This document shows positions 1 through 27,051 of a stretch of 64,000 bases of DNA, piece by piece (the stretch's first letter is position 1; each line of letters opens with the position of its first letter). Position numbers and translations under genes: made by a program. The DNA lies in the IMG/VR virus record IMGVR_UViG_3300046010_015054, positions 96,001 through 160,000 of that record, one strand, 5' to 3'. The stretch is from a virus. The notes below the pieces were generated by a model that ran no database searches, was not told the DNA's origin, and saw only the letters and a program-made list of their open reading frames with translations.

Positions 1-1787
1 TAAGGTCTTTCACCTTTAGGTACATTAATACCATAATTTAATTCTTTAAATTCTAACCCTAAAATATCTGTTGCAGTTGCTTGCATTGGGATAGTATTAC
101 ATTGACGAGGGTGATAATTTGGGCTTTTCCAACCCCCATTTTCGTCTCTAAACCATCCTAATTTATAATGAGTAATACATTCAACAGCTGTTCCTGGGTT
201 GGTGAATTCTATGTTTTTGTAAGCTTCTAATCCTTGGAACCAATCATTATGGAATGTAGAAAGTATAACTTTACAATTATGTTTTTTAGCAAATTCAACA
301 ACATAAGGAACCCAACCAATGGTATCACCTATTGCTTTAGATTCTACCGTAATTAAAACTTTTTGATTAGTTAAATCTAATCTACTTGCTTCTTTACCAT
401 CAATTTTTATTACCCAAGGTACATAGTACTCTGTACTACATTCAACCCACATATTATTGTTAATGGTTTGTGAATGGTGTACTTTACCGGTTGCAGAATC
501 AATAAATTCTATAAAATAACTTTTGTTAATATTTCCTAAAATTTCTACTTTAGGTTTATTTAAATAACTAATATTTATTTTATTTTTATCTTCTACTTGA
601 TTATATTCATCTAAAAATTCTTGTAAAGTATTCCGACCAATTTCAGCTACTTTATCCCAATTAAAATTTTGATGGATAATTTCAGACTCTTTATGTGCAC
701 GTTTATAATGATCTTGATAATTTACGTAAGCATCTCTCATTACACGAGCTAAATCTTCAAAATCAGGTTCATAATAAGAACCTTCTACAAATTTTCCTTT
801 ATAATTTGGATCCTTGGCAGGTAATTCTCCCCATACTTTTACAGGTAATCCTTTACCTTCAGCAAATTCCATTTGACCAGAGCATGCTGAGTAAATAGCT
901 GGAGTACCACAAGCCATAGCCTCAATTAAAGGTAAATTCCATCCTTCACTACGAGCACAAGATAAAAATACATGACCTGTTTTTAAGTATTGAATGTAAT
1001 CTTCTCTAGAAGGAAAATGTACTACTTTGATGCGAGGATCTTCTAAACCATAATGCTTTAATCTATCTTCAGTAGTTTTTAAACCATCATCTGCAAATGG
1101 GTTATCAACCGAAAGTATTAAATCAACTTTCTCATCTGGTTTGAATTCTTTAAGAAAGGTTTCAATTATTTCTTTTGTAGATTTTCTATATTCCCAACGC
1201 CCAAACATTACAAATTTAAACCTATTATCCAAATATTCTTCTGGGAGTAATAGGTAGGGTTCAATTTTAAAGATATTAGTGTCTACACCCTCAGGTACAA
1301 CTTTTACTTTTTCAGCAGGCATACCTTGCTTAATAGTACATTCAGCTTGCCATTTTGAAGGTACCCAAATTTGATCAAATTCTTTTAATTTATTAAAAAA
1401 ATTTTCAGGTTGTAAAGTAGATTCCCAAACATTATATGCAATTTTAGGACCTACGTAATTATCATAAAAATAATGATGACCCGTAGCTTCTAAAATAATA
1501 TTAACATTATGTTTAAAATTATTTTCATAATTTTTATATATAGGAGAATCTTGCCTTTCGTAATCTACAAAAAGTGTTTGTTCAACTAATAATTTTTTAT
1601 CTAAATCATTTAAATAAGGTTCATTATTATGAGGTTCATCTTTATAACCTTCCCAAGTTTTACCTGCAGGAAAATTTCTAACTTTTACATCAAGATGTTT
1701 AGATAAATGTCTAAAAAAATCTCTTGTATGATTAGCGTAACCTGTAGGGCCTATATAAGGTCCGTGTGCATAAACTTTTGGTTTCAT
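1..1787 (-). CDS. GT4 glycosyltransferase fused to an autotransporter O-heptosyltransferase (AAH/TibC-like) domain; 3' end runs off the window
   Basis: Not in the ORF track because it has no stop in the window. Hand translation from ATG at 1787 gives MKPKVYAHGPYIGPTGYANHTR...FGRWEYRK...ARSEGWNLPLIEAMACGTP (GT-B/GT4 EX7E motif), then ESKAIGDTIGWVPYVVEFAKKHNCKVILSTFHNDWF, which resembles the GD..W.PY..F...H.C segment of AAH/TibC heptosyltransferases. Confidence 0.8.
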   Translation of the reverse strand, partial: MKPKVYAHGPYIGPTGYANHTRDFFRHLSKHLDVKVRNFPAGKTWEGYKDEPHNNEPYLNDLDKKLLVEQTLFVDYERQDSPIYKNYENNFKHNVNIILEATGHHYFYDNYVGPKIAYNVWESTLQPENFFNKLKEFDQIWVPSKWQAECTIKQGMPAEKVKVVPEGVDTNIFKIEPYLLLPEEYLDNRFKFVMFGRWEYRKSTKEIIETFLKEFKPDEKVDLILSVDNPFADDGLKTTEDRLKHYGLEDPRIKVVHFPSREDYIQYLKTGHVFLSCARSEGWNLPLIEAMACGTPAIYSACSGQMEFAEGKGLPVKVWGELPAKDPNYKGKFVEGSYYEPDFEDLARVMRDAYVNYQDHYKRAHKESEIIHQNFNWDKVAEIGRNTLQEFLDEYNQVEDKNKINISYLNKPKVEILGNINKSYFIEFIDSATGKVHHSQTINNNMWVECSTEYYVPWVIKIDGKEASRLDLTNQKVLITVESKAIGDTIGWVPYVVEFAKKHNCKVILSTFHNDWFQGLEAYKNIEFTNPGTAVECITHYKLGWFRDENGGWKSPNYHPRQCNTIPMQATATDILGLEFKELNYGINVPKGERP

Positions 1788-1788
1788 A

Positions 1789-2538
1789 TTATCTCATTAT
1801 TGAACAACCCCCATCTAGTCCTCTATATCCATCAAAACCATGATAAATAGGACAAATTGGAACTCCGTGATTTCTTAAATGCTGTCTGAGTAAAGTTTCA
1901 TTAACAAACATATCATAATAGTACTGGTAATATTCAGGGTTTACAAAGATTGTTCGTAACATTTCAGGAAAGACATTATGGTAGGTTTTCATAACATCAT
2001 ATCCCCCAACAGCAAAAGTATCATTAAGTTGATCAGCCATACCCCATCTATCAGGATATTCAAAAAAATTAACTGCTTCAGGGTTTACTTTAGTAATGTC
2101 TTCTAAGAAGATACAATTTTCAGCTACTCTATGTGTCCAAAGTAAATCATATCTTGTTTTTATTACCAAATCATATTTAATACCGGAATTTTCTAACAAA
2201 TCCCAAGATCGTTTTAAAGATAACCACATTCCCATTTGGGAATTTAAGCGTTGGTTATTTTGTCCTTTTAAATCTGTAGCATCAAACTTTATTGCTTTTT
2301 CAAATAAATGTTTTTTAGGCTGATACCAATCTAATAGATTTTTGTAAGTATTTTGATCAACATTATAAACACGTTGCAATTTACCTTCATTAAAAAAATC
2401 ATACTTGTAAAAATGTTTATCAACCCAAGCATGCATATACACATCAATATCATATCGATCTAAAAACCAACGTTTTAGTTCTTTAAAACCATGTTTGTAT
2501 CTACGTGGCTGACCACTAATTGTTAAAGCTATTTTCAT
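1789..2538 (-). CDS. Putative GT-A-like glycosyltransferase (SGxPR / YDxVIxxRxD family), paralogue 1
   Basis: MKIALTISGQPR, DVYMHAW, YDLVIKTRYDL and LNDTFAVG motifs; clearly paralogous to 2535-3299. Confidence 0.55.
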   Translation of the reverse strand: MKIALTISGQPRRYKHGFKELKRWFLDRYDIDVYMHAWVDKHFYKYDFFNEGKLQRVYNVDQNTYKNLLDWYQPKKHLFEKAIKFDATDLKGQNNQRLNSQMGMWLSLKRSWDLLENSGIKYDLVIKTRYDLLWTHRVAENCIFLEDITKVNPEAVNFFEYPDRWGMADQLNDTFAVGGYDVMKTYHNVFPEMLRTIFVNPEYYQYYYDMFVNETLLRQHLRNHGVPICPIYHGFDGYRGLDGGCSIMR

Positions 2539-3299
2539 CGAATAATATGGGCATGAAAATGTTTGGTTAAACTTTCAACATAATTTACCTCTACATTATT
2601 TTTTAGCATTACATGCCATTTTAAAAGACTTTCAGCAACAGTTTTATCCGCTGTACTTGTGACAGTTTTTAACCATTCACCATAATCTGGGTCTATAAAA
2701 ATGTAGTTAAGTATATAACAAAAATAATCAGAATAAATTTCAGCAATATGAGGTCCACTAACTATAAATTGATCATCAATTTCAGATGTTCGTTGAGGGA
2801 ATCCATTAATATCTGGGTATTTAAAGCAATTATATTTGTTAGGATCTAATTGAGTAATGTCTTTTAGAAAGATACATTTAGGAGATACATACTTAGTAAA
2901 TTGAAGATCAAATCTATATCTAATAATATAATCATATTCAATACCGGATTCACGTACTAAATTATAACAAGCATGAATTGAATAAGCAGCACTTAAAATA
3001 TTATGTAATTTATAATTTAAATGAGATCCGCGAATATCGGTTTCATCAAACGGTATAGGTGTTTGAAATTCGTATGCTTTAGGTTTATATAATTTTAAAA
3101 TTTTATCATAATCACTTTGTGTAAAAGTGTATGTTTTTTTTTCTAAAAAATCATGTCCAGTTTCAAAGACTGATGTAGTATCATACCAAGTATGGATGTA
3201 AACATCACAATCATACTTGTTTAAGAACCATTTTTTTAGTTCTTTAAAACCTAAATCATAATTGCGGGGTAAACCGCTTATACAAATTGCTACTTTCAT
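2535..3299 (-). CDS. Putative GT-A-like glycosyltransferase, paralogue 2
   Basis: MKVAICISGLPR, DVYIHTW, YDYIIRYRFDL and IDDQFIVSG motifs; 4-nt overlap with the next gene. Confidence 0.55.
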   Translation of the reverse strand: MKVAICISGLPRNYDLGFKELKKWFLNKYDCDVYIHTWYDTTSVFETGHDFLEKKTYTFTQSDYDKILKLYKPKAYEFQTPIPFDETDIRGSHLNYKLHNILSAAYSIHACYNLVRESGIEYDYIIRYRFDLQFTKYVSPKCIFLKDITQLDPNKYNCFKYPDINGFPQRTSEIDDQFIVSGPHIAEIYSDYFCYILNYIFIDPDYGEWLKTVTSTADKTVAESLLKWHVMLKNNVEVNYVESLTKHFHAHIIR

Positions 3300-3910
3300 T
3301 ATCTATAATGACCTCCTCCTAACCAAAGAACAAATGATTTACGAGTACCTTTAATTACAGGTGTAACTCTATGAAGCATAAATGATGGGAAAATAATAAC
3401 AGTACCCTTACCTTTAGGACCTGTTAAAGGCATTTGCCCACCATTCCAAATTTCTAAATTACCCCCTTCATATTCTTCAGGGCCAGAAAGTTGAACTGTA
3501 ACTGAGAGTTTTCTAAAAGGCATAAATCCTTGGCTACCTATATCCATATGCCAATCATAGTGACCTTTATTAGTACCATAGTATTCAGTATATTGAATTT
3601 GTTCTGGCATAAAGTTTAGATCAAAATGATACATTTCTTTATTAGCTTCATATGCCATTAAACCAATTTTATCGTAAATCCATTTTGTATTTTCTGAAAA
3701 TGGAATCCATTTAATACTGGAATTGCGAGCATCTAAATTTTCACCTTGATCTTGTCCACCTTGCTCAGTAACAGCTGTTTGGAATTGCATTTCGGCTACT
3801 TGAGATTCAATTTGAGATAACTCATCAGTAGTAAAACCTTCTTGAAACCAATAATAATTACATTGGTTTACGGGATTTTCTAAAGGGAATGTATAATTAA
3901 CATTCATCAT
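3299..3910 (-). CDS. 2OG-Fe(II) oxygenase, prolyl-4-hydroxylase/PKHD-like
   Basis: HxD (WHMD), RKLSVTVQL, YEGG, distal His with 2OG-binding Arg (HRVTPV..GTRKSFVLW). Confidence 0.88.
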   Translation of the reverse strand: MMNVNYTFPLENPVNQCNYYWFQEGFTTDELSQIESQVAEMQFQTAVTEQGGQDQGENLDARNSSIKWIPFSENTKWIYDKIGLMAYEANKEMYHFDLNFMPEQIQYTEYYGTNKGHYDWHMDIGSQGFMPFRKLSVTVQLSGPEEYEGGNLEIWNGGQMPLTGPKGKGTVIIFPSFMLHRVTPVIKGTRKSFVLWLGGGHYR

Positions 3911-3921
3911 GATTTTTTAAA

Positions 3922-6273
3922 TTAAGGATTTGTAAAAGAAATTAAAATATATCGGGTTCCTTCGATTACAGGACGTCCCCCGTGTTTGTGAGTAATTTGA
4001 CCAGGATGAGCCATAGCATATCCTTTTCTTTGAGGTTGGATTGTTAATTTATAGCGAGGGATAAAAGTACCACCTCCTTTAAATTCATCATTTAACCTAA
4101 CATTTAATGTAATAGCTGAGCTATCGTGGTGAATATCTAAGCTACCTTGATTATTTGTATCATATTTAGCAATAAAGTTTTCACTTTTTGAAGTTTGCCA
4201 ATTATTACCTTCAAGTTCCCAAAACCAAATCCAAATAGGATAAACAAATTGTTCTAGAACTTTTTGATAGATTTTTTGCATCTTTAAACTTTCCATAGTT
4301 TGGTCTGTTGTAGGATAAAAAGTATGTCTATCAGTTTTCCATTCATTTTGTTCAGCTAAAGCTATTACTTCATCACAGAATTTTTCAGTAAATAATGGGA
4401 ATTCAATAATATTAGGACCAATTTCATCAGTCATAAGCTTATATTGTCCTTTTAAAATATAAGGATCAATATATTTTTTACACCACTCTTCCCAGTTACT
4501 ATCATCTAAAATTTCAATTATAGGTTTATTACCTTCAGTTACTCCTACACTTTTATCTTGTTCAAAATAATTAACTTTTGGAGCAGCTACTTTTAATTTA
4601 GGTAGATCAGCAAAATCTGCTAAAATATCTTGACGATGAGTCATACCAAAAGTAATTGATAAAAACTCATCTAAAGCAAATATTTTACTTTTATAACGAG
4701 GGATCCACTCTTCTACTAGCTTTTGAACACCTGAACGTGATAAAATGTAGGCGTGTGAGTTATATGAATAATCAGGCTCTACCCAATTTCTAAATCCTTC
4801 TATAGGTTTTTCTAAATCAGGTTTAAGAGCATTACGTCCTAAATAAATCATATCATATCCTTTATCTAAAAGAGATTTTATATTTTCCCAGTTTACTGGG
4901 AGTTGTTCTTTAAAATCTTCTTCTAGAATAAAAGTTATTTCTCTATCATATTCATAAGCATCAACCCAAGCATCAATATGAGCTAAGGCACATCCTACTT
5001 CTCCATCTGTTACTTCGCGATTCCACCAATGACAACTACTTTCGATTTTCCAATTTGGGTGTTTTTTAACACCAAATTTTACTAAATCTTTTTGTGTTAA
5101 AGTGCGATAATCAAAACCAGTTTTTACCCAGTAGTTATAAAAACCAGGCATAGATAATTTATCGCATTTATCTTTAATTTGCTGAGTTTCATTTAAAGCT
5201 ATAACGTAAAAATGATCTAAATTCATATTTAATTTTAATAATAAAGGTATCCAGTTTCTTATTGTTACATACCACCAGTCAAGTGAATATACGTAATTTT
5301 GTGCTAATTGCCAATTTATATTGTCATTTTCATTAAGAGCATTAAAACCATGTAATGTTTCTTTTAAACCACCCCATTCCCAAGTAATAGGTAATACTTG
5401 ATGGCCTAACATTTCTAAAGCTGTTAAGCAAAATGTTTCTTCATATGTTGAAGGATAGTACCAATATTGACTATCCGCCATTAATTTATATAATTCTTTT
5501 TCGGGTAATGTACCTAAAAATTCTACATCATCCAAACTATCTACCCATTCTTTATAATATTGATTATAATATTCTAAACCATATTCAGGAGTACAAATTT
5601 TTAAGCTAGAATCAGGGGCTTCTTGTTTAATTTGAGGCCAATCTTCTAATACTCTAGCTAAACCTCTTTCAGCATGAGATGAATAGATATATTGATTTTT
5701 ATTTTTTTGATATAATTGAGAAGTTGGTTTTGGGAAGATTAAACCTTTTATTGCTTGGGGTTCAGGAAAAGTTTTTATAATTTTGCTAGCATCAATACCA
5801 TAACCAATAATTTTAATTTTACTTTCGGTTTCTGGGTATTGTTGGAGCCAAATTTCTCTATGCCATTTAGTTAAGCATATAATATATTTAAGTTTAGGAT
5901 GGATTAATAATTCTCTATGATTAGGTATTTCTTCTCCATTCCACCAATTATAATAATCGGTATTACTAAGCCAAAATATAGAATTTTTATAATTAAAATC
6001 TTCAAATTCTTTTAAATAATGTATATAATTTATTCCAATAATAGTATCAACTGAAGATTCTTCTTGTTTAAATTGTTTAGTAGTTCTATATTTTACATTA
6101 TCAAAATCTCCAGGAATAACATTTCCAACTACCCAAATATAATATTCAGGGAGTTTGGCTAATTCTTGTGCTAAATAATAAGTGGTTTTTTCTGTACCTC
6201 CTAAACCGGTAGTTTCTATAGAAGAAGGACCCCAAGGAGTTTTGTGATAACCTGTGTATAAAACTATTTTCAT
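3922..6273 (-). CDS. Tri-domain enzyme: GT4 + GT25 (COLGALT-like) + PLOD-like lysyl hydroxylase
   Basis: N-terminal GLGGTE and PSTYEETFCLTALE (GT4). Middle GEVGCALAH..ILEED..YDMIYLGR..VEPDYSY..HAYILS (GT25/procollagen galactosyltransferase-like). C-terminal FPLFTEKFC..PTTD..HHDSS..GGGT..HPGQITHKHGG..GTRYILISF.NP (PLOD-type 2OG domain). The start is probably ATG 6273 (MKIVLYTG) rather than 6309, because 6284-6323 holds promoter and terminator elements. Confidence 0.85.
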   Translation of the reverse strand: MKIVLYTGYHKTPWGPSSIETTGLGGTEKTTYYLAQELAKLPEYYIWVVGNVIPGDFDNVKYRTTKQFKQEESSVDTIIGINYIHYLKEFEDFNYKNSIFWLSNTDYYNWWNGEEIPNHRELLIHPKLKYIICLTKWHREIWLQQYPETESKIKIIGYGIDASKIIKTFPEPQAIKGLIFPKPTSQLYQKNKNQYIYSSHAERGLARVLEDWPQIKQEAPDSSLKICTPEYGLEYYNQYYKEWVDSLDDVEFLGTLPEKELYKLMADSQYWYYPSTYEETFCLTALEMLGHQVLPITWEWGGLKETLHGFNALNENDNINWQLAQNYVYSLDWWYVTIRNWIPLLLKLNMNLDHFYVIALNETQQIKDKCDKLSMPGFYNYWVKTGFDYRTLTQKDLVKFGVKKHPNWKIESSCHWWNREVTDGEVGCALAHIDAWVDAYEYDREITFILEEDFKEQLPVNWENIKSLLDKGYDMIYLGRNALKPDLEKPIEGFRNWVEPDYSYNSHAYILSRSGVQKLVEEWIPRYKSKIFALDEFLSITFGMTHRQDILADFADLPKLKVAAPKVNYFEQDKSVGVTEGNKPIIEILDDSNWEEWCKKYIDPYILKGQYKLMTDEIGPNIIEFPLFTEKFCDEVIALAEQNEWKTDRHTFYPTTDQTMESLKMQKIYQKVLEQFVYPIWIWFWELEGNNWQTSKSENFIAKYDTNNQGSLDIHHDSSAITLNVRLNDEFKGGGTFIPRYKLTIQPQRKGYAMAHPGQITHKHGGRPVIEGTRYILISFTNP

Positions 6274-6283
6274 AAACCTATAT

Positions 6284-6314
6284 ATAATATAAATATAAAA
6301 GGGGGACATTCAAA
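6284..6314 (-). promoter_or_regulatory. Bacteroidota-type sigma70 promoter candidate (TTTG-N19-TATATTAT), overlapping an ATATTTAT motif at 6289-6296
   Basis: Same spacing as three other sites in the window; resembles the TTTG(-33)/TAnnTTTG(-7) consensus. Confidence 0.5.
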
Positions 6315-6323
6315 GTCCCCCTT
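6297..6323 (-). terminator. Intrinsic terminator after collagen chain A
   Basis: GGGGGAC/GTCCCCC stem with a 7-nt loop, followed by a T-run on the minus strand. Confidence 0.75.
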
Positions 6324-6344
6324 ATTAAAAATACTTATAAATTT

Positions 6345-9300
6345 TTAAACTAATTCTAGTTTTTCAAATTTAACATCAATTTTGCTATAGTCTACAGCAT
6401 AATAACCATTTTCAGCTATTACCACAGCGTCTTCAAATTGTGTTCCTAATAATTCTTGAGCCATTACACCAATATATCTAGTATTAGGATCATTAATGTA
6501 ATTATACTCGTAAATATTAATACCTAATTTAGATACACCTATTTTTACAATATTTTCTTTTAATCTAATATCTGATGTTTTTCTGTATTGAAGATAACCA
6601 TCGGCAAAATCTAATGTTTGTGAAAAATTTACTGTAAATAATTTAAAATTTACAGTTAAACCTATAGGTCCAGTACCTTCAGCCCCAATAAGACCTCTAG
6701 AACCAATAGGACCACGAGGGCCGATAGGACCTCTAGGACCTTGAGGACTAGAACCAACAGCACCAATAGGACCACGAGGACCAATATTACCAATAGGACC
6801 TTGAGGGCCTTGAATAGTACTAGCTGGGCCTCTATTGCCCCGAGGGCCTTGTACTCCTATAGGTCCTATAGGACCTTGTGGGCCCGGACCAATAGGACCA
6901 ATTATACCTCTAGGACCTTGGGGTGCAACGCCAATTGGGCCAATATTACCAATAGGACCAATTGGACCCCATGGACCACGAGGACCAATAGGACCTTGTA
7001 TGCCTTGTGGACCTTGTGGGCCCGGGCCTATAGGACCAATAATGCCAGTAGGTCCAATAGGACCTCTAGGACCAATGTTACCAATAGGGCCTTGAATGCC
7101 CTGTGGACCTTGTGGGCCAGGACCAATTGGACCAATATTACCAATAGGACCAATTGGACCCCATGGACCACGAGGACCAATAGGACCTTGTATGCCTTGT
7201 GGACCTTGTGGGCCCGGGCCTATAGGACCAATAATACCTTGAGGACCAATAGGACCTCTAGGGCCTACAATATCAGTTACATCTCCTGCAATGCCTTTAG
7301 GACCTTGAATGCCTGTAGGGCCTTGAATACCTTGTGGGCCTTGAGGACCAGGTCCAATAGGACCTATAATACCTTGGGGTCCTCTAGGACCAATAGGACC
7401 AATGTTACCAATAGGGCCTTGAATACCTTGTGGACCTTGAGGTCCAGGACCTATAGGGCCGATAATACCTTGAGGACCACGAGGACCAATGTTACCAATA
7501 GGGCCAATTGGGCCTATTATACCCCGTGGACCAATAGGACCAGGTCCAATATTACCAATAGTACCTTGTGGACCTATATTTCCAATTGGACCCTGAATAC
7601 CTTGAGGACCACGAGGTCCAATAGGTCCTTGTGGGCCTGGTCCAATAGGACCAATAATGCCAGTAGGTCCAATAGGACCCCAAGGACCTCGCGGACCAAT
7701 AGGGCCTATAATACCCTGAGGGCCTTGAGGACCAGGACCTATAGGGCCTATTATACCTTGAGGACCACGAGGACCAATAGGACCTTGAATATCATTTATA
7801 TCACCCGGAATACCTTTAGGACCTATAATACCTGTGGGGCCTTGAATGCCTTGTGGACCTTGTGGGCCAGGACCTATAGGACCTATAATACCCTGAGGTC
7901 CTCTAGGGCCAATAGGACCAATGTTACCAATAGGGCCTTGAATGCCCTGTGGACCTTGTGGGCCAGGACCTATAGGACCTATAATACCCTGAGGTCCTCT
8001 AGGGCCAATAGGACCAATGTTACCAATAGGACCTTGAATGCCCTGTGGACCTTGTGGGCCTGGGCCAATAGGGCCGATAATACCTTGAGGACCAATATTA
8101 CCCCGAGGACCTTGTATTCCTTGAGGGCCTTGAATACCCTGAGGTCCTTGTGGACCTGGGCCAATTGGACCTTGAATTCCAATAGGTCCAATAGGACCCC
8201 AAGGACCTCGTGGGCCAATAGGGCCTATAGTACCTTGAGGACCTTGTGGGCCCGGGCCTATAGGACCAATAATACCTTGAGGACCAATAGGACCACGAGG
8301 ACCTATAGCATCAGTTACATCTCCAGCAATACCTTTAGGACCTATAATACCTGTGGGGCCTTGAATGCCTTGTGGACCTTGAGGTCCGGGACCTATAGGA
8401 CCAATAATACCCTGAGGTCCCCGAGGACCAATAGGACCTTGTGTACCTTGCGGGCCTTGAATACCCTGAGGCCCTTGTGGGCCTGGACCAATTGGGCCTT
8501 GGATACCTAAAGGACCTCTAGGACCAATAGGACCAATGTTACCAATAGGACCTTGAATACCTCGCGGGCCTTGTGGACCCGGACCAATAGGACCTATAAT
8601 ACCTTGAGGACCACGAGGGCCAATAGGGCCTTGAAGATCACCAGTATCACCTGGGATACCTTTAGGACCTTGTATGCCTGTAGGTCCTTGGGTACCTTGC
8701 GGGCCTTGTGGACCTGGACCAATAGGACCGATAATACCTTGAGGTCCTCTAGGACCAATAGGCCCTTGAATACCTTGTGGACCCTGAATGCCCTGTGGGC
8801 CTTGAGGTCCAGGACCGATTGGACCCTGAATGCCTAAAGGTCCTCTAGGACCAATTGGGCCTATATTGCCAATAGGACCTTGAATACCTTGTGGACCTTG
8901 AGGTCCAGGGCCTATAGGACCAATAATACCTTGTGGACCTCTAGGACCAATAGGTCCCTGAGTACCTTGTGGGCCTTGTATGCCTTGTGGGCCTTGTGGT
9001 CCAGGTCCAATGGGGCCTTGAATTCCAATAGGTCCAATAGGACCCCATGGACCTATTAAACCACGAGGACCTTGAATACCTTGTGGGCCTTGTGGTCCTG
9101 GTCCAATAGGGCCTATAATACCTGTAGGACCTTGAATACCTTGAGGTCCTATTAAACCTCTTGGACCTTGTGGACCTTGTGGTCCTGGTCCAATAGGACC
9201 TATAATTCCTTGTGGTCCACGAGCGCCAATAGGACCTTGTATACCTTGTGGACCTTGTGGACCTTGTGGTCCTGGTCCAATAGGACCAATTATACCTCTT

Positions 9301-9707
9301 GGTCCTTGTAAGCCTTGTGGTCCTTGAGTACCTTGTGGACCTTGAATACCACGTGGACCTTGCGGTCCTTGATTGCCTCTAGGACCTTGTGTACCCCTAG
9401 GACCTTGTGGTCCTTGTAAATCAATTGGTGTTCCTGTTTTACTAGTAACAATTAAAGCTTCAGCAGGTGCATCAAATCGTAAAGCACCCGTTCTATTAGA
9501 AACAAGAACTGTATTAGGTACTACAAATCCAGCATTACTATTAATTTCAATACCTGTTGGTTTAATAGTAAATATATCAACACTACCACTTTGGACTGCT
9601 AAATCTCCTGTAACATTATTAAAAGTAAAATCTATAGCTTTACCATTTGAACTTTCAATAAATTCAAGGCTACCTGATTTAGGTATTATTTTAACATTTT
9701 TAGCCAT
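6345..9707 (-). CDS. Collagen-like fibre protein (chain A) with C-terminal peptidase S74 intramolecular chaperone
   Basis: About 930 aa of Gly-X-Y with periodic GP interruptions; C-terminal SDIRLKENI...IGVMAQEL...[10 protein letters not shown] is the autocleaving chaperone motif. Confidence 0.9.
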
Positions 9708-9713
9708 AGATTA

Positions 9714-12700
9714 TTAAGGGTTATAAGCTGTTAATACTCCGGCTACATAATTAAATGAAGGGTTACCTCCACTAGTATTAAGAGCAAAAGTTGTAGTAAC
9801 TCCAGTTGGTGCATTATTACCTGCTGGGCCCTGAGGACCAATGGGGCCTTGAGGACCAATAGGACCAATAGGACCAATAGCGCCTGTAGCACCTGAAGGG
9901 CCAATAGGACCTTGTGGGCCAATGGGTCCAATGTTACCAATAGGACCTTGAGCACCAGATGCACCAACAGGACCAATAGGACCCTGAATACCTTGTGGGC
10001 CTATATTTCCAATAGGACCAGTTGGGCCAATAGGACCAATAGGACCTTGAGGACCAATAGGGCCTGTAGGACCGATAGGGCCAATAGGACCAATATTACC
10101 TTGAGGGCCTTGTGGTCCAATGGGGCCAATATTACCAATTGGACCTTGGGGGCCAATAGGACCTGTAGGGCCAATAGGACCAATAGGACCTTGTGCACCA
10201 ATAGGTCCGATAGGGCCAATAGGACCAATATTACCAATTGGACCTTGAGGACCAATAGGGCCTGTAGGACCAATTGGGCCAATAGGGCCAATATTACCTT
10301 GGGGACCTTGAGGACCTATAGGACCGATATTACCAATTGGACCTTGCACACCAATAGGACCTGTAGGACCAATAGGACCGATAGGACCCTGTGGGCCGAT
10401 AGGACCAATAGGGCCTTGGGGGCCTGGAGCTTGATTATCTCCTTTAGGTCCAATTGGGCCTTGAGCGCCAATAGGGCCTTGAGGGCCAATAGGACCAGTT
10501 GGACCGATTGGACCAATAGGACCCTGTGGACCAATAGGACCAATAGGACCTATGGGACCAATATTACCAATAGGACCTTGAGGGCCAATAGGACCAGTTG
10601 GGCCAATTGGACCGATTGGACCTTGAGGACCAATTGGACCAATGTTACCAATTGGACCGATTGGACCAATAGGACCTTGAGGACCAATAGGGCCTGTAGG
10701 ACCAATAGGGCCAATAGGACCTTGTGGACCAATGGGGCCAATATTACCAATTGGACCTTGAGGACCAATAGGACCAATAGGACCAATGGGGCCAGTAGGT
10801 CCTATAGGACCAATAGGACCTTGGTTACCTTGTGGACCTTGTGGACCAATTGGACCAATAGGACCAATAGGACCTTGAGGGCCAATAGGTCCAGTAGGAC
10901 CAATGGGGCCGATAGGACCTTGAGGACCAATAGGACCGATAGGACCAATGGGGCCAGGTGCTTGGTTGTCTCCTTTAGGACCAATAGGACCTTGTACTCC
11001 AATAGGACCTTGAGGACCAATTGGACCCGTAGGACCAATAGGACCGATAGGGCCTTGAGGACCAATTGGGCCAATAGGGCCAATAGGACCAATATTACCA
11101 ATTGGACCTTGAGGACCAATAGGACCTGTAGGACCGATAGGGCCAATAGGGCCTTGGGGTCCGATAGGACCAATAGGACCTATAGGACCAATATTACCAA
11201 TTGGACCTTGGGGGCCAATAGGACCTGTAGGACCGATAGGACCGATAGGACCTTGTGGGCCGATTGGACCAATAGGACCAATTGGGCCTTGAGCTCCAAT
11301 AGGACCTTGTGGACCTATAGGACCTGTAGGACCAATAGGACCGATAGGGCCTTGGTTTCCTTGAGGACCCTGTGGGCCAATAGGACCGATAGGACCGATA
11401 GGACCTTGTGGGCCGATTGGACCAGTTGGTCCGATAGGACCAATTGGACCTTGAGGGCCGATAGGTCCAATAGGACCTTGAGGACCAGGTGCTTGGTTAT
11501 CTCCTTTAGGTCCAATAGGACCTTGTACTCCAATAGGACCTTGTGGACCAATCGGGCCAGTAGGACCAATTGGGCCAATAGGACCCTGTGGGCCAATAGG
11601 ACCAATGGGACCAATAGGGCCTTGAGCTCCAATAGGACCTTGAGGACCAATTGGACCTGTAGGACCGATAGGACCTATAGGACCTTGAGGACCTTGAGGA
11701 CCAATAGGGCCAATAGGGCCTATAGGACCTATGGGACCTTGTGGACCGATCGGACCAGTTGGACCAATTGGACCAATAGGGCCTTGGGGGCCAATCGGAC
11801 CAATAGGACCGATAGGGCCCGGAGCTTGGTTGTCTCCTTTAGGTCCAATAGGACCTTGTGCACCTATAGGACCTTGTGGGCCAATAGGACCAGTTGGGCC
11901 AATTGGACCGATTGGACCTTGAGGACCGATAGGACCTATAGGACCAATTGGGCCTTGAGCTCCAATAGGACCTTGTGGACCTATAGGGCCAGTTGGGCCA
12001 ATTGGACCTATGGGACCTTGAGGACCAATTGGACCAATAGGACCGATGGGGCCGATAGGACCTATGGGACCTTGAGGGCCAATTGGACCAGTTGGACCAA
12101 TTGGACCAATAGGACCTTGTGGGCCGATAGGACCAATCGGACCGATAGGACCAATTGGACCAATAGGACCTTGAGGACCGATAGGACCCGTAGGACCAAT
12201 TGGGCCAATAGGGCCTTGGTTACCTATAGGACCTTGTGGACCAATTGGACCTTGAGGACCGATTGGACCTTGTGGGCCGATAGGACCTGTAGGACCGATA
12301 GGACCAATTGGGCCTTGAGCACCAATAGGACCCTGTGGACCAATGGGGCCAATTGGGCCTTGTGGGCCTTGAGGACCTGTAGGACCGATAGGACCAATTG
12401 GACCTTGAGGACCGATAGGGCCAATAGGGCCGATAGGACCCTGTGGGCCAATAGGACCAATAGGACCTGTAGGGCCGATAGGACCGATAGGGCCCTGAGG
12501 ACCAATAGGACCAATAGGGCCTATGGGACCTTGTGCTCCAATAGGGCCTTGTGGTCCAATAGGACCAATAGGACCTTGTGGGCCTTGTGGACCTTGAGGA
12601 CCAATTGGACCTTGAGGACCACCACCTGTTATGGTTCCAGCTGTACCTTCTACTTCTAAAGTATTTGTACCACTATTAAACCAAACTTGTCCTGGGATTG

Positions 12701-12914
12701 GTGAAGAAGGAGAGGATCCTACAACAGGTAATACAAAAGTAGCATTATTAGCAATGGCTAAACTGCCACTATCAATAGTAGCAATGTTAACAGAACCACT
12801 TTTGATTGTTAATTGACCCGCTGATGCAAAATCAAATTTAATTTCTTTACCTACAGCAGTATCTTGGAAATTTAAGCTACCTGATTTTGGTATTATCTGT
12901 ACGTTTTTTGCCAT
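9714..12914 (-). CDS. Collagen-like fibre protein (chain B), no chaperone domain
   Basis: About 930 aa of (GPI/GPQ/GPT)n; the N-terminus [16 protein letters not shown] is nearly identical to that of chain A. Confidence 0.9.
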
Positions 12915-12929
12915 CTTTTATATATACTA

Positions 12930-12937
12930 ATAAATAT
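12930..12937 (-). promoter_or_regulatory. Putative late promoter ATATTTAT upstream of the collagen genes
   Basis: One of 16 exact copies (plus 2 variants) found just upstream of start codons. Confidence 0.7.
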
Positions 12938-15900: not shown

Positions 15901-18900
15901 TCCTGAAGTGCCGCTTGAACCTGAACTACCGCTTGAACCTGAAGAACCTGATGTTCCACTAGTACCTGAAGAGCCATCCGTACCTGAGGTACCTGATGAA
16001 CCAGATGAACCTGAAGTACCTGAAGTTCCGTTTATACCTGAAAGACCTGATGATCCTGAAGTACCTGAAGTACCTGAAGAACCACTAGTTCCACTTGAAC
16101 CTGATGAGCCTGAACTACCTGAGGTTCCACTTGTACCTGAAGATCCGTCTGTACCTGATGTACCTGATGAACCGCTTGTTCCTGATGAACCTGATGAACC
16201 TGATGTACCAGATGAACCTGAAGAACCACTTGTTCCTGATGAACCATCTGTACCTGAAGTACCTGAGCTACCTGAAGAACCTGAGCTACCTGAAGTGCCA
16301 GATGAACCATCTGTACCACTTGTACCCGAAGTACCTGAAGTACCATTAATACCACTTAAACCTGAAGATCCAGATGTACCTGAAGTGCCTGAACTTCCTG
16401 AAGTACCTGATGAGCCTGAGCTACCTGATGTTCCTGAAGATCCTGAAGTACCAGATGAGCCATCTGTACCAGATGTACCTGAGGAACCACTAGTTCCTGA
16501 TGAACCACTAGAACCTGAAGTTCCACTAGAGCCTGAACTACCTGAAGTACCACTTGAGCCATCTGTACCTGAAGTACCAGATGAACCAGATGATCCTGAG
16601 CTGCCTGAAGTACCAGATGAGCCATCTGTACCGCTTGTGCCTGAAGTACCTGAAGTACCATTAATACCACTTAAGCCAGAAGAACCACTTGTTCCTGAGC
16701 TACCTGAAGTACCACTTGTTCCTGAAGAACCTGAGCTACCACTTGTACCACTAGTTCCTGATGAACCATCTGTACCTGAGGTACCGCTTGAACCTGATGT
16801 TCCTGATGAGCCACTTGAACCCGAAGTTCCAGATGAACCAGAACTACCTGAAGTGCCTGAAGAACCATCTGTACCAGATGTTCCTGAAGATCCTGAACTA
16901 CCTGAGCTACCACTAGTGCCTGAAGTACCTGAGCTACCATCTGTACCACTTGAACCTGAAGTTCCAGAAGTACCACTTGTTCCGTTTATACCTGATAAAC
17001 CAGAAGAACCACTTGTTCCGCTTGTACCTGAAGAACCATCTGTACCACTTGTACCAGATGAACCAGATGTACCACTTGAGCCACTAGTTCCTGAAGATCC
17101 GTCTGTACCTGAAGTTCCTGAAGAACCGCTAGTACCTGATGAGCCTGAACTACCACTTGTGCCTGATGAGCCTGAACTACCTGATGTACCTGATGAACCA
17201 TCTGTGCCGCTTGTACCAGATGAACCTGAACTACCACTAGTACCTGAAGTACCTGAAGAACCATCTGTACCTGAAGTACCTGATGAACCACTTGTACCTG
17301 AAGTGCCATTTATACCTGAAAGACCTGAGCTACCTGATGTGCCACTAGTACCTGAAGTACCATCTGTACCACTTGTACCAGAAGTGCCACTTGTACCCGA
17401 AGAACCATCTGTACCTGAGGTGCCAGATGAACCATCTGTCCCTGAAGTTCCTGATGAACCTGAAGATCCAGATGTTCCTGATGAACCACTTGAACCAGAT
17501 GTACCTGAAGTACCTGAAGAGCCATCTGTACCTGAAGTACCGCTTGAACCATCAGTACCTGAAGTACCACTTGTGCCGGATTCACCTGAGGTTCCTGATG
17601 AACCACTTGTACCTGAGGTGCCGTTTATACCGGATAAACCTGAAGATCCGCTGGTTCCGCTTGTGCCTGAAGAACCATCTGTACCAGAAGTACCAGATGA
17701 GCCAGATGTTCCGGATTCACCACTTGTACCAGATGAACCATCTGTACCAGAAGTGCCTGAAGTACCTGATGTACCATTTATACCTGAAAGACCAGATGAA
17801 CCAGAGGTACCAGAAGAACCATCTGTACCCGAAGTACCAGAAGTGCCACTAGAACCATCTGTACCCGAAGTACCTGAAGAACCATCGGTACCACTTGTAC
17901 CTGATGAACCACTAGTACCTGAAGTACCATTAATACCACTTAATCCCGAACTTCCACTTGTTCCGCTTGTACCTGAAGATCCGTCTGTACCTGAAGTACC
18001 CGAAGAACCGCTTGTACCTGATTCACCGCTTGTACCCGAAGAGCCATCAGTTCCTGAAGTACCAGAAGTACCGCTTGTTCCGTTTATACCTGAAAGGCCT
18101 GAAGAGCCTGAAGTGCCAGATGAACCATCTGTACCAGATGTGCCTGATGAACCACTTGTGCCAGAAGTACCTGAAGAACCGTCTGTACCTGAAGTACCGC
18201 TTGAGCCATCAGTACCTGAGGTACCACTTGTACCTGAGGTTCCATTAATACCGCTTAAACCTGATGAACCTGATGTACCACTTGAACCATCTGTACCAGA
18301 TGTACCAGAAGAACCACTAGTTCCTGATGAACCAGATGTACCTGAACTACCATCTGTACCTGAAGTGCCACTTGAGCCATCAGTACCTGAAGTGCCACTT
18401 GTTCCGTTTATACCTGAAAGGCCTGAAGAGCCTGAAGTGCCACTTGTACCAGATGAACCATCTGTACCAGATGTGCCTGATGTTCCGCTTATACCTGAAC
18501 TACCATCTGTACCTGAAGTACCAGATGAACCATCTGTTCCTGAAGTTCCTGATGTGCCGCTTGTTCCGTTTATACCAGACAAACCAGAACTACCTGAAGT
18601 GCCACTTGAGCCATCAGTACCTGAAGTTCCTGATGAACCACTTGTACCACTTGTACCACTTGTGCCTGATGAGCCATCTGTACCTGATGTTCCTGAAGAA
18701 CCATCTGTACCACTTGTACCAGAGGTTCCATTAATTCCTGAAAGGCCTGAACTACCACTAGTACCTGAAGTGCCATCTGTACCACTTGTACCAGAAGTAC
18801 CACCTGTACCTGAAGTACCACTTGAACCATCTGTACCTGATGTACCTGAAGTACCATCTGTACCACTAGTTCCAGAAGTACCATTTATACCACTTAAACC

Positions 18901-20865
18901 TGAAGATCCGCTTGTTCCACTTGTACCAGATGAACCATCTGTACCAGAGGTACCAGAGGTACCAGAAGTGCCTGAAGAACCATCTGTTCCTGATGTTCCT
19001 GATGAACCATCTGTACCTGAGGTACCGCTTGTGCCCGAAGTACCATTTATACCACTTAAACCTGAAGAACCTGAGGTACCTGAAGTACCACCTGTACCAC
19101 TTGTACCAGAAGTACCACCGGTACCTGAAGTGCCACTTGTTCCTGAAGTTCCGGATTCACCACTTGAGCCTGATGTTCCAGATGTACCATTTACACCTGA
19201 TAATCCTGATGTGCCTGAGGTTCCTGAAGTACCTATACCTGAAGTTCCACTTGAACCACTTGTTCCAGAAGTGCCATCTATACCTGATGTACCTGAAGTA
19301 CCTGCTTCTCCTGAAGTGCCACTTGTACCCGAAGTACCATTAATCCCAGAAGTTCCTGATGAACCATCTGTACCTGAGGTACCACTAGTACCTGATTCTC
19401 CTGATGTGCCTGATGTTCCTGAAATTCCACTTGTACCTGAAGTACCAGATTCACCACTTGTTCCACTTGTACCAGATTCTCCAGAGGTACCTGAAGTACC
19501 AGACTCACCTGAAGTACCGGATGTACCTGAAATTCCTGATGTACCTGATGTACCCGAAGTACCTATACCAGAAGTGCCAGAAGTTCCTGATGAACCATCA
19601 GTACCTGAAGTGCCACTAGTACCTGATTCTCCTGATGTACCTGAAGTACCAGTTTCACCTGAAGTACCACTTGTGCCTGAAGTACCAGAAGATCCTGAGT
19701 CTCCTGAAGTGCCTCCTGTAATAGTTACTAATACTGCTGTACCTGATCCTGTTGATTCAACTTGTACACCACTACCAGTAAAGTAGAACGCACCGATATT
19801 GGTATCAACGAGTGAGCCCGTATAATAAATTGTAGTACCAATAGTAACGTTAACTTCTCCTGGATTACTGCCAGTTTCTGCAACTACACCTGATCCTGTA
19901 AAGTTAATTAGTGTAGCGTTTGTTGTTAAGACAAAATTTTCGTCTGAAATTGTAATAGCAGAACCTGCTCCTGAAGTACCTGAGGTACCGCTAGTACCAG
20001 TTTCACCTGAAGTACCACTTGTACCAGATGATCCTGAAGAGCCTATGCCTGAAGTACCTGAGGTACCACTTGTTCCTGAAGTTCCTTCACCTGATGTACC
20101 AGAAGTGCCACTTGTACCATTAATACCAGAAGTACCTGAAGTACCATCAGCACCCGAAGTACCACTTGTACCTGATGTGCCTACGCCTGAAGTGCCAGAT
20201 GAACCATCTGTACCTGAAGTACCACTTGTTCCTGATGTACCTACACCTGAAGTACCAGATGAACCATCTGTACCTGAAGTACCTGATGTGCCTGAAGAAC
20301 CGATACCTGAAGTACCGGAAGAACCATCTGTACCAGATGTTCCTGAAGTACCTGAAGAGCCTGTACCTGATGTACCTGAAGTACCATCTGTTCCAGATGT
20401 GCCGCTGGTACCTGATGTGCCTACACCTGAAGTACCTGAAGTGCCATCTGTACCTGAAGTACCTGATGTGCCTGAAGAACCGATACCTGAAGTACCACTT
20501 GTACCAGATGAACCATCTGTACCTGAAGTACCTGAAGAACCTATACCTGATGTACCTGAAGTACCACTTGTGCCTGAAGTTCCTGAAGAACCTGAAGAAC
20601 CTGAAGAACCAGAACCACCACCAGTACCAGTAATTGTAATAGTAGCACCATTTGAACCAGACGCTTCAACAAAAACCCCACTACCTGTAAAGTTTAATGT
20701 TGCAACATTTGATACAACTAATGAACTTGTGTAGTAAATATTAACTGCTCCACCTATACCGGAAGTACCTGAAGTACCTGAAGTGCCATCTGTGCCACTT
20801 CCTCCACCGGTTGACTGAAAACTCCCAATTGATATTTGGTCTAAAAATCTAGCGTTACTGGCCAT
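12937..20865 (-). CDS. Giant Gly-Ser/Thr triplet-repeat fibre protein (2642 aa) with a phage-fibre C-terminal domain
   Basis: Over 2200 aa of GTS/GSS/GTD triplets, three short 'FTGSGV' beta modules near the N-terminus, and a C-terminal [24 protein letters not shown] domain typical of phage fibre C-termini. Confidence 0.8.
13530..19710 (-). repeat. Degenerate 9-bp coding tandem repeat (Gly-Thr/Ser-Ser)
   Basis: Hundreds of synonymous variants of cctgaagta/cctgatgaa on the plus strand. Confidence 0.95.
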
Positions 20866-26235: not shown

Positions 26236-27051
26236 TTATCCTATTCTACCAACAGTTAATATAACTGAAGGAACAGCAGGTCCTAAAGTAGGGGTTCCAT
26301 TATATAGAACAACAGCATTATTATCAGTGCCTGCCATTCTTAATTCATAATAATCTCCTGCTGAAGCTGAGAGATAAAAATTCCATGCAGCTACAGAGGA
26401 ATCATTAGATCCACCTCCTAAAGTAACTCCTGTATTACTATCATCAACATTATTTCCATTTTTTGCTAACCAAATATAAACTGTATTATTACTATTATTA
26501 GTTTTACTTAATTGAGCTGAAAATTGAAGATCATAGATTCCAGTATTAGCTATTTTAATTTGGGTTTTATCTGAGCCACTAATACTAATACCACTAGCAA
26601 AGTCTGTGGTACTATAAGACATTGAATAAACTGTATTAGTTACTGATAAAGATATAGATGCTGTATGATACGCTGATAGATAATAATTAGTAACCCCACT
26701 ACCACCTGAAGTTCCACTAGAACCTGATGTTCCTGAAGAACCTGAAGAACCAGATGTTCCACTTCCTGAAGTTCCACTAGTACCACTTGAACCGGACGTC
26801 CCTGAAATACCCGATGTTCCTGAAGTACCATTTATACCTGATGTACCTGAAGTGCCTGCAACTCCTGAAGTACCCGAAGAACCAGAAGTACCACTACCTG
26901 ATGTACCTGAGGTTCCACTAGTACCTGATGTTCCGGAAAGAAATTGTGAATATTCTACTTGTTTTGTGACACTATCTTGAACTACAACAAATAATTCATC
27001 TCCTACTAAAGGACCAGCTACAGGTAATTGAGATATAGGTAAATTAGGCAT
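26236..27051 (-). CDS. Probable head-decoration/fibre protein with a short SGT repeat and C1q/TNF-like C-terminal domain
   Basis: N-terminal PISQLP..L.GDELF.VVQ...TKQV fibre-attachment-type motif, ~80 aa of GTS repeat, GIYDLQFSAQL beta-sandwich motif; two genes downstream of the capsid gene. Confidence 0.6.
   Translation of the reverse strand: MPNLPISQLPVAGPLVGDELFVVVQDSVTKQVEYSQFLSGTSGTSGTSGTSGSGTSGSSGTSGVAGTSGTSGINGTSGTSGISGTSGSSGTSGTSGSGTSGSSGSSGTSGSSGTSGGSGVTNYYLSAYHTASISLSVTNTVYSMSYSTTDFASGISISGSDKTQIKIANTGIYDLQFSAQLSKTNNSNNTVYIWLAKNGNNVDDSNTGVTLGGGSNDSSVAAWNFYLSASAGDYYELRMAGTDNNAVVLYNGTPTLGPAVPSVILTVGRIG

Follow-up and report, generated by a model that had tools for sequence, protein, structure and literature searches.

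A conserved phage locus joining collagen-like fibre genes with predicted lysyl hydroxylase-type, COLGALT-like and TibC-type enzymes

Results

Collagen-like and enzyme genes lie together between the neck and tail sheath genes

Here we describe a block of eight contiguous phage genes, in which three genes for collagen-like, putative fibre proteins are followed by five genes for predicted oxygenases and glycosyltransferases that may modify them. The stretch of DNA analysed (the window, 64,000 nucleotides) comprises bases 96001-160000 of the virus record IMGVR_UViG_3300046010_015054, which has 170,105 bp and is rated complete. All genes of the fibre and enzyme region are on the minus strand. An earlier note on this DNA, made from the sequence alone, had described eight contiguous genes, fibres first and enzymes after; we confirmed the eight open reading frames (ORFs) at their positions, transcribed in the order P0001, P0002, P0003, P0004, P0005, P0006, P0007 and P0008, with gaps of 1-35 nt, or of 71 nt before P0004 if this gene starts at the ATG at 6273. 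The extent of the cassette had to be enlarged, as it also runs 2 kb past the window start, to the tail sheath gene. Downstream of P0008 there is an 82-aa ORF, then the tail sheath gene and then the tail tube gene; upstream of P0001 lie three neck-region genes, PhoH, a phosphatidylserine decarboxylase gene, a gene for a small repeat protein and a gp23-type capsid gene. The phage is T4-like, and the cassette separates its neck genes from its tail-sheath gene; among cultured phages, Flavobacterium phage immuto comes closest to it (54% identity in the capsid). The phage probably has a host among the Bacteroidota, and its DNA is present in many lake-water metagenomes.

Three collagen-like proteins with two distinct compositions

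The first and largest gene, P0001 (12937..20865), encodes a proline-free collagen-like fibre of 2642 aa. It contains 758 Gly-X-Y triplets in 14 runs, with Thr or Ser at X and Ser at Y in 655 of them and not a single Pro. Three short beta-domains lie close to its N-terminus, its C-terminus is a non-repeat part of about 200 aa, and Pfam places a PF01391 match at the end of the protein. The earlier note had seen a (G-S/T-S)n fibre here. The repeat stands, but the idea of a merely Ser/Thr-rich fibre does not, since the triplets keep a strict Gly-X-Y register, and P0001 is better read as a third, proline-free collagen of the locus with a predicted triple helix.

The other two proteins are rich in Pro. 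P0002 (collagen B, 9714..12914) has 1066 aa and 308 triplets of the type Gly-Pro-[I/Q/T], with four G-P-K-G-D-N sites and without a chaperone domain. P0003 (collagen A, 6345..9707) has 1120 aa and 279 triplets, and its residues 1045-1087 match Peptidase_S74 (PF13884) at 31.8 bits against a cut-off of 22, including the motif S-D-I-R-L-K, which bears out the C-terminal S74 chaperone that had been assigned to it. Pro occupies X 272 times in P0002 and 187 times in P0003, and it is never at Y in the 587 triplets of the two proteins, where Ile, Gln, Arg or Thr are found instead. Lys is present at Y only, four times in each protein and always as G-P-K-G. P0002 and P0003 have an N-terminal region of about 100 aa in common, and this type of domain is conserved in the collagens of five relatives (L003, L006, L007, L012 and L014); the N-terminal domains of P0001, P0002 and P0003 match no family in Pfam or PHROGs. 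We also observed that P0003 has one-residue deletions (G-P-I-G-P-G-P-Q) every 9-12 triplets or so, dividing it into 31 runs (5 in P0002), and that the resulting G-P-G breaks, about 24 in number, are the sole Pro-Gly dipeptides in both window collagens.

Several features suggest that these proteins are fibres. The S74 intramolecular chaperone is a hallmark of phage fibres and spikes. The C-terminal domain of P0001 is 39-47% identical to the end of immuto gp052, annotated as 'putative tail fiber-like protein', and belongs to phrog_17490; many proteins of uncultured phages, some of them annotated as collagen repeat, have this domain too. In an AlphaFold model of the P0001 C-terminus residues 1-115 have a pLDDT below 60, so the structural comparison was limited to the last 85 aa or so. 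Their best matches are phage tailspike and tail-fibre tip domains, with Z scores of at most 7.5, within the range of chance resemblance (cyanophage Pam1: Z 7.5, rmsd 1.9 Å over 66 aa). In BFVD, the same tip matches phage proteins named 'Collagen triple helix repeat' at their ends, and a PDB sequence search with the P0001 C-terminus returned collagen-repeat matches only. This likeness is suggestive at most of a distal fibre tip. Together with what occupies the same slot in immuto, namely tail-fibre-like and structural genes, the S74 domain, the C-terminus shared with immuto and the tip likeness argue for a fibre nature of P0001-P0003.

P0004 fuses a GT4, a COLGALT-like GT25 and a PLOD-type lysyl hydroxylase domain

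P0004 (3922..6273) encodes a three-domain enzyme. Its open frame, from 6309, corresponds to 795 aa, and its homologues align from residue 13 on, which supports a start at the ATG at 6273. The first domain is a GT4 glycosyltransferase (residues 13-345 or so, bases 5275-6273), with PF13692 above the Pfam cut-off. The second is a GT25, COLGALT-like domain (residues 366-560 or so, bases 4630-5214; PF01755, 30.1 bits against a cut-off of 24), whose residues 398-557 match human COLGALT1 with an E of 6e-13, or of 1e-13 against its catalytic GT2 domain (residues 334-492). The third is a PLOD-type lysyl hydroxylase (LH) domain (residues 605-795, bases 3925-4497) that aligns end to end with residues 513-715 of human LH3 (E 9e-26) and matches the LH domain of mimivirus L230 (PDB 6ax6, E 2e-25). 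The GT4-GT25-PLOD fusion read by the earlier note is therefore real. No GT_PLOD (PF25342) or PLOD accessory domain was found in P0004 by the Pfam search.

The catalytic residues are intact. H727-H728-D729, H776 and R786 of P0004 align with the HHD, THYHEG and GTRY motifs of LH3, and H727, D729, H776 and R786 are kept in at least 111 of 113 full-length homologues, all from metagenomes. The GT25 metal motif reads E-[D/E]-D in all 113 homologues (the second position is D in 58 and E in 53), among which the E-x7-E motif of the GT4 domain is also conserved. P0004 is predicted to have LH-type and COLGALT-like activities. Among INPHARED phages we found no full-length P0004 homologue, only domain-level matches. 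We considered whether the GT4 domains of P0004 and P0008 are recent duplicates, and rejected this (BLASTP E 0.07).

P0008 fuses a GT4 and a TibC-type domain

P0008 (1..1787) runs off the window start; the full gene encodes 760 aa (genome 95505-97787, equivalent to L002:15505-17787). A GT4 domain (residues 1-400 or so) is followed by a TibC/Aah-type protein O-heptosyltransferase domain of the GT9 family (residues 423-755), in agreement with the GT4-heptosyltransferase fusion of the earlier note. This second part passes the equivalog cut-off of TIGR04414 (hepto_Aah_TibC; 206.1 bits against 200), as compared with 19.4 bits for the LPS (lipopolysaccharide) heptosyltransferase I model, and matches TibC (PDB 4rap/4rb4) with an E of 4e-31; no LPS heptosyltransferase structure in PDB matched P0008 at an E below 1. 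Asp110 and Cys339/342/358/370 of TibC align with an Asp and four Cys of P0008 (4rb4 is the D110A mutant). In TibC, Asp110 is catalytic, the Cys residues form an iron finger, and Ser is modified, not Thr (PMC4358343). The alignment starts at TibC residue 62, and P0008 may therefore miss part of the N-terminal barrel of TibC. No autotransporter-like gene was seen in the genome parts examined, the whole genome not having been searched for one.

Elsewhere, the genome encodes an rfaE_dom_I-like protein (124 bits, cut-off 345) and an rfaE_dom_II-like protein (95.5 bits, cut-off 181.5), which could represent a split HldE-like kinase and adenylyltransferase and so supply ADP-heptose. The latter type is represented by a 131-aa cytidylyl/adenylyltransferase at genome 7274-7642 (L009:1489-1884; rfaE domain II E 2.4e-27, below cut-off), whose next-best match is glycerol-3-phosphate cytidylyltransferase and whose kinase-like partner lies near 27.6 kb. 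We also observed a second modification cluster, outside the window at genome 25112-28362 (L011:5112-8362), with two further 2-oxoglutarate (2OG)-Fe(II) oxygenases (PF13759; PF13661/PF13640) and a Sulfotransfer_2 gene adjoining the HldE-kinase-like gene.

Enzymes and fibres keep company in related phages

The earlier note had proposed that relatives be searched for co-occurrence and synteny, and this comparison came out in favour of its claim. Eight related contigs carry a P0004 homologue (44-80% identical), and all have the same gene order: collagens, LH fusion, oxygenase, GT-A paralogues (absent in one contig), GT4-TibC fusion, 82-aa ORF and sheath. Collagens of the P0002/P0003 type (Pro/Lys collagens) are directly before the LH fusion in every contig reaching upstream, and a collagen of the P0001 type (Ser/Thr collagen) precedes them where contigs extend further. 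A search with the sheath protein gave 80 further loci of the wider lineage, and co-variation was counted over 32 loci, namely those showing at least 7 kb ahead of the sheath gene, in a view limited to the 10 kb before it. A Pro/Lys collagen accompanies the LH fusion in 7/8 loci and occurs in 0/24 loci without it (Fisher p 2e-6); a Ser/Thr collagen accompanies the TibC-like enzyme in 10/16 loci and occurs in 0/16 without it (Fisher p 2.5e-4). Both p-values overstate independence, the loci compared being mutual relatives, which has to be set against the reading that we favour. The sole locus with the LH fusion and no collagen in view is a contig ending at the LH gene. Similarly, at least four of the six TibC misses are short views: three contigs end before the Ser/Thr collagen would be reached, and L040 shows 7.4 kb. 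L006, with a view of 18.7 kb, has just a 147-aa ORF carrying the C-terminal domain of the fibre.

In many relatives neither fibre type is present, the neck genes being followed directly by the sheath gene, and the enzymes are absent as well. Phage immuto has the same backbone, with neither Gly-X-Y genes nor the enzymes in the region. Other relatives carry a Ser/Thr collagen, two GT4 genes, an FkbM methyltransferase gene and a stand-alone TibC-like gene, without LH fusion and without Pro/Lys collagen. Because some relatives carry the TibC module alone, the two modules are separable.

One relative, L013 (L013:3003-6716 and L013:9170-10474), has a collagen composed of charged triplets; 113 of its 178 triplets have Lys at Y, and Pro is almost absent. 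The locus also contains a second, stand-alone gene with GT25 and 2OG-like parts, has no GT-A paralogues, and carries a methyltransferase domain inserted in its GT4-TibC fusion. All triple-helical Lys residues are in an X-Lys-Gly context, both in the window (8/8) and in the relatives (277/277).

Related fusions were found in two cultured phages of independent lineages. In Roseobacter podovirus CRP-6 (L016:2952-6564), GT25, PLOD-GT and LH-like domains are combined in gp58. Two genes ahead of it stands gp60, which is annotated as a tail fibre and proves to be a collagen of 99 triplets with 26 Lys at Y. The same three domains are present in gp218 of Synechococcus phage S-CAM9 (L017:4699-6540), whose gene follows a tail-fibre gene and two 2OG oxygenase genes. 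Both gp58 and gp218 are annotated as 'hypothetical protein'.

The slot before the sheath gene acts as a hot spot at which modification cassettes are exchanged. We observed an alternative cassette at L020:3165-9641 (also in L026, L029 and L067), with a sulfotransferase, a P0005-like oxygenase, two GT2 and a flavin amine-oxidoreductase-like gene, and no collagen within 10 kb.

These comparisons bear on a different explanation, in which the targets of the enzymes are components of the host envelope (LPS core or O-antigen, capsule, surface proteins), remodelled during infection, for example to block superinfection, and their adjacency to the fibres reflects regional plasticity. The GT25, GT9 and GT4 families were first described in LPS synthesis, as the Pfam names 'LPS biosynthesis protein' and 'heptosyltransferase' recall; glycosyltransferases in the hypervariable region of marine myophages have been interpreted as envelope remodelling enzymes (PMC7029224); and the slot holds glyco-cassettes without visible collagens, as just described. 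Envelope remodelling, however, predicts no pattern in which each enzyme tracks its own fibre type, such as the one found. Moreover, the fusion partner of the GT25 domain is a hydroxylase of the PLOD type, known to act on peptidyl lysines, and the GT9 domain passes the protein O-heptosyltransferase equivalog, scoring 19 bits for LPS heptosyltransferase I. We therefore regard envelope remodelling as quite improbable.

A PKHD-like oxygenase and two GT-A paralogues complete the block

P0005 (3299..3910) encodes a 203-aa Fe(II)/2OG oxygenase of the P4Hc/PKHD superfamily (phrog_61). Its PF13640 score (52.4 bits against a cut-off of 27) indicates superfamily membership only, and it is in this sense that the 'P4H-type oxygenase' of the earlier note holds. 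A closer kinship to prolyl 4-hydroxylases does not: the best PDB matches are PKHD-type (Sbal_3634, E 1.5e-8; PiuC, E 6.5e-6), compared with an E of 0.019 for the prolyl 4-hydroxylase 6iuq, and in NCBIfam the protein matches PRK05467, an Fe2+-dependent dioxygenase, below cut-off.

Canonical prolyl 4-hydroxylation was rejected as the main role of P0005, given the absence of Pro from all Y positions of the two window collagens. One could still argue that P0005 is a collagen prolyl hydroxylase acting on collagens A and B: the PF13640 domain has the HxD...H ligands, the gene is directly after the LH fusion in eight of eight syntenic relatives, the collagens of some relatives do have Pro at Y (L006, 30-33 per protein), and the breaks of collagen A offer G-P-G. 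Against this stand the composition of the window collagens, the PKHD-type nature of its nearest solved relatives, and the presence of P0005 homologues in six related loci without collagen in view, beside a sulfotransferase and GT2 genes or beside the TibC module alone. We consider a prolyl hydroxylase role rather unlikely. P0005 is part of the conserved block, and we leave its substrate out of the mechanism proposed below.

P0006 (2535..3299, 254 aa) and P0007 (1789..2538, 249 aa) are paralogues, 39% identical, that match only DUF7796, weakly, by sequence. An AlphaFold2 model of P0006 (pLDDT 93.5) agrees with the GT-A-like assignment of the earlier note. With Foldseek the top matches are all GT-A (BoGT6a, glycogenin and alpha-1,3-GalT, E 1e-5), and with VIA-align Mnn9, hyaluronan synthase and BoGT6a reach Z scores of 10-11.3 over 170-200 residues; P0007 is predicted to share the fold. 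P0006 belongs to phrog_13607 and to a family with 964 representatives; its residues G9, R12, D32, Y122, R129 and D131 are invariant. The conserved acidic residues are D32, D123, D131 and D176, with no canonical D-x-D; BoGT6a, to which the fold is most similar, does not depend on a metal. In the relatives there are two to four genes of this type. On the strength of the model, P0006 is probably a glycosyltransferase that extends the fibre glycans.

Phages are known to use 2OG oxygenases and GT4-type transferases on DNA, including a GT4-like example (PMC13326640), and the enzymes of the cassette could in principle hydroxylate bases of the phage DNA and then glycosylate them, giving hypermodified DNA. 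None of their domains, however, belongs to a nucleic-acid-modifying family, the LH and TibC/Aah-type (BAHT) domains are protein-specific by sequence, and the cassette is within the structural module, apart from the nucleotide-metabolism genes, all of which makes DNA modification extremely improbable.

Further candidate acceptors and features of the region

Two smaller proteins with repeats like those of P0001 are encoded in the window, both on the minus strand: a Gly-[T/S]-S protein of 271 aa with 26 triplets (26236..27051) and a Gly-[T/S/L]-S protein of 449 aa with 95 triplets (56199..57548). Both are candidate acceptors, and they may be capsid or neck decorations and extra glycosylation targets. 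The gene of the 271-aa protein has the capsid gene on one side and on the other a 304-aa ORF, after which come the phosphatidylserine decarboxylase and PhoH genes.

The main acceptors of the enzymes might accordingly be other virion proteins (capsid decoration, neck and tail proteins, small Ser-repeat proteins), the giant fibres being un- or marginally modified. The two Gly-Ser/Thr-Ser proteins, one of them beside the capsid gene, speak for this, as do the four Lys sites in each window collagen. Virion glycosylation as published for mycobacteriophages also affects capsid and tail-tube proteins. On the other hand, the presence of the enzymes follows the large fibres in the same slot, and in L013 the adjacent collagen, with its 113 Lys, is accompanied by an extra GT25-oxygenase gene. 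We judge it improbable that the giant fibres are bypassed in this way.

Between the stop codon of collagen A and the probable P0004 start there is a strong terminator-like hairpin on the minus strand (6299..6323; 9 bp stem with 6 G-C pairs, then a T run). Four of six relatives have a hairpin at the same place (L003 with the same stem; L007, L012 and L013 with different stems), while L006 and L014 have none there. It could produce a step-down of expression from the structural to the enzyme genes. No RNA dataset was listed among the public runs containing the gene, and a sigma-70 promoter scan was uninformative (49 sites against 48.6 expected). We also noticed that the phosphatidylserine decarboxylase gene (window 24476-25210) is within the structural module, beside PhoH; none is listed in the syntenic stretch of immuto.

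Discussion

We propose that this locus is a self-contained cassette of two separable modules that modify the phage's own fibres, a reading that we consider likely, if well short of certain. The earlier note had inferred fibre hydroxylation and glycosylation by the phage itself. Enzyme families, synteny and co-variation support this, with two amendments: the canonical prolyl 4-hydroxylation that it implied finds no substrate in the window collagens, and what it took for one system is better described as two modules.

In the first module, the substrates of the GT4-GT25-LH enzyme would be collagens A and B. The PLOD-type domain would hydroxylate the Lys of G-X-K-G using Fe2+, 2-oxoglutarate and O2, the COLGALT-like GT25 domain would add a hexose to the new hydroxyl, and the GT4 domain of P0004, perhaps with the GT-A paralogues, would extend the glycan. 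In the second module, the TibC-type domain of P0008 would O-glycosylate Ser in the proline-free fibre P0001, its candidate acceptor, most likely from ADP-heptose; Ser is the presumed acceptor because TibC modifies Ser and not Thr, and Ser occupies Y in 655 of the 758 triplets of P0001. The two smaller Gly-Ser/Thr-Ser proteins are probably also acceptors of this module, and the GT4 and GT-A enzymes would add further sugars. The host cytoplasm would be the site of all these reactions, which would precede or accompany the trimerisation of the fibres, and the hairpin between the fibre and enzyme genes would hold enzyme expression below fibre expression.

Several points weigh against this proposal, in addition to the mutual relatedness of the loci compared. 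Each window collagen offers four Lys sites in about 1100 residues, a small pay-off for the first module. The confinement of Lys to Y could be taken as a sign of selection by the hydroxylase, an idea that we rejected: Arg follows the same Y-only rule (0/166 elsewhere in the relatives), as expected from general collagen preferences. The metal motif of P0004 is E463-E464-D465, an E-E-D and not the unusual, Mn2+-binding E-D-D of COLGALT1 (PMC12003778). The COLGALT1 match would, moreover, be compatible with an LPS-type specificity, since bacterial GT25 enzymes of the LPS type are not represented in PDB and no bacterial GT25 chain came up there for comparison. We therefore do not regard this match as proving that the acceptor is a protein; the sole argument for such an acceptor is the fusion of the GT25 domain to the LH domain. 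The donor sugar of the second module is uncertain, because neither HldE-like protein reaches its equivalog cut-off, both are encoded 70-90 kb from the cassette, and they are accompanied by neither GmhA (SIS_2) nor an NAD-dependent epimerase in our genome search, in which blanks are weak evidence (the PF13640 query returned one other oxygenase and missed P0005). Finally, we infer, from sequence, the substrates, the sugars, the incorporation of the modified fibres into the virion and the purpose of the modification, which may be helix stabilisation, adhesion or shielding.

It is also tempting to speculate that the phage makes two chemically distinct glyco-collagens: a Pro-rich one bearing glycosyl-hydroxylysine as in animals, and a proline-free one stabilised, in place of hydroxyproline, by a sugar on nearly every Y Ser over some 760 triplets. 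We find this bolder version unlikely. If it were true, glycan-stabilised collagen and the pathway of Lys hydroxylation and galactosylation would be widespread among bacterial viruses rather than confined to animals and giant viruses.

The closest parallel to the first module is found in mimivirus, where L230 likewise joins a virus-encoded PLOD-type LH domain to a glycosyltransferase, R699 is a glucosyltransferase, and collagen-like proteins are encoded by the same virus; P0004 would do as a single polypeptide what L230 and R699 do in mimivirus. The proposed chemistry is the same, from Lys to hydroxylysine to glycosyl-hydroxylysine in the cytoplasm of the infected cell. In contrast, mimivirus is a giant virus of amoebae, and the virus studied here is a tailed bacteriophage with a probable Bacteroidota host; L230 combines a GT-A glucosyltransferase with the LH domain, whereas P0004 combines GT4, GT25 and LH; and, unlike in mimivirus, the enzyme gene adjoins its presumed substrates and travels with them. 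The activity of L230 is proven, whereas that of P0004 is predicted from its sequence.

In animals, LH3 (PLOD3) and COLGALT1 (GLT25D1) form a complex (PDB 8zgc), and both of its catalytic domains have homologues in P0004, which keeps the Fe/2OG ligands, has an E-[D/E]-D motif instead of DxD (E-E-D, against E-D-D in COLGALT1), and has the X-Lys-Gly context in its presumed substrates. LH3 and COLGALT1 are, however, separate proteins that associate, while P0004 is one chain. It lacks the PLOD GT and accessory domains as well as the non-catalytic GT1 domain of COLGALT1, and has a GT-B (GT4) domain instead; CRP-6 gp58 and S-CAM9 gp218, unlike P0004, carry the PLOD-GT.

For the second module, the known counterparts are the TibC-TibA and Aah-AIDA-I pairs of E. 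coli (BAHT), whose family cut-off is passed by the C-terminal 330 aa of P0008, with the Asp and the four-Cys iron finger kept. An acceptor Ser in a long repetitive protein would be common to both. The acceptor of the BAHT enzymes is the passenger of a beta-helical autotransporter, whereas the presumed acceptor of P0008 is a Gly-X-Y fibre, and in P0008 the TibC-type domain is fused to a GT4 domain. As for the acceptor, BclA of the Bacillus anthracis exosporium and the cuticle collagen of Riftia are hydroxyproline-poor and bear O-glycans on repeat Thr or Ser; in Riftia, glycosylated Thr at Y (Gly-X-Thr) stabilises the helix. The enzymes acting on BclA and Riftia collagen are unrelated to those of the phage cassette, and P0001 has no Pro and has Ser rather than Thr at Y.

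Collagen Lys hydroxylation and glycosylation are textbook animal biochemistry, with mimivirus as their viral outpost so far, and the known cases of protein O-heptosylation are a few adhesins of enterobacteria. Previous work predicted that bacterial collagen-like proteins are hydroxylated by other dioxygenase families, and that bacterial collagen-like or tail-collar proteins undergo hydroxylation followed by sulfation (Iyer et al. 2010, PMC2938197). Full-text literature searches brought up no account of PLOD/COLGALT-like or TibC-like enzymes from phages. What is new here is the presence of both modules in one conserved cassette of fixed order, the GT4-GT25-LH architecture, and the separability of the modules.

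A common lineage of freshwater phages thus has predicted enzymes for both chemistries, with intact catalytic residues, within its structural module, beside matching repeat fibres with which they come and go. The idea is directly testable, since related fusions are encoded by two phages in culture, CRP-6 and S-CAM9. If it is true, small single-chain enzymes would be available for making hydroxylated and glycosylated collagens in bacteria, and phages would belong to the evolutionary reservoir of the collagen-modifying enzymes of animals. Moreover, phage virions would bear elaborate, enzyme-installed modifications, with possible effects on adsorption, stability and recognition.

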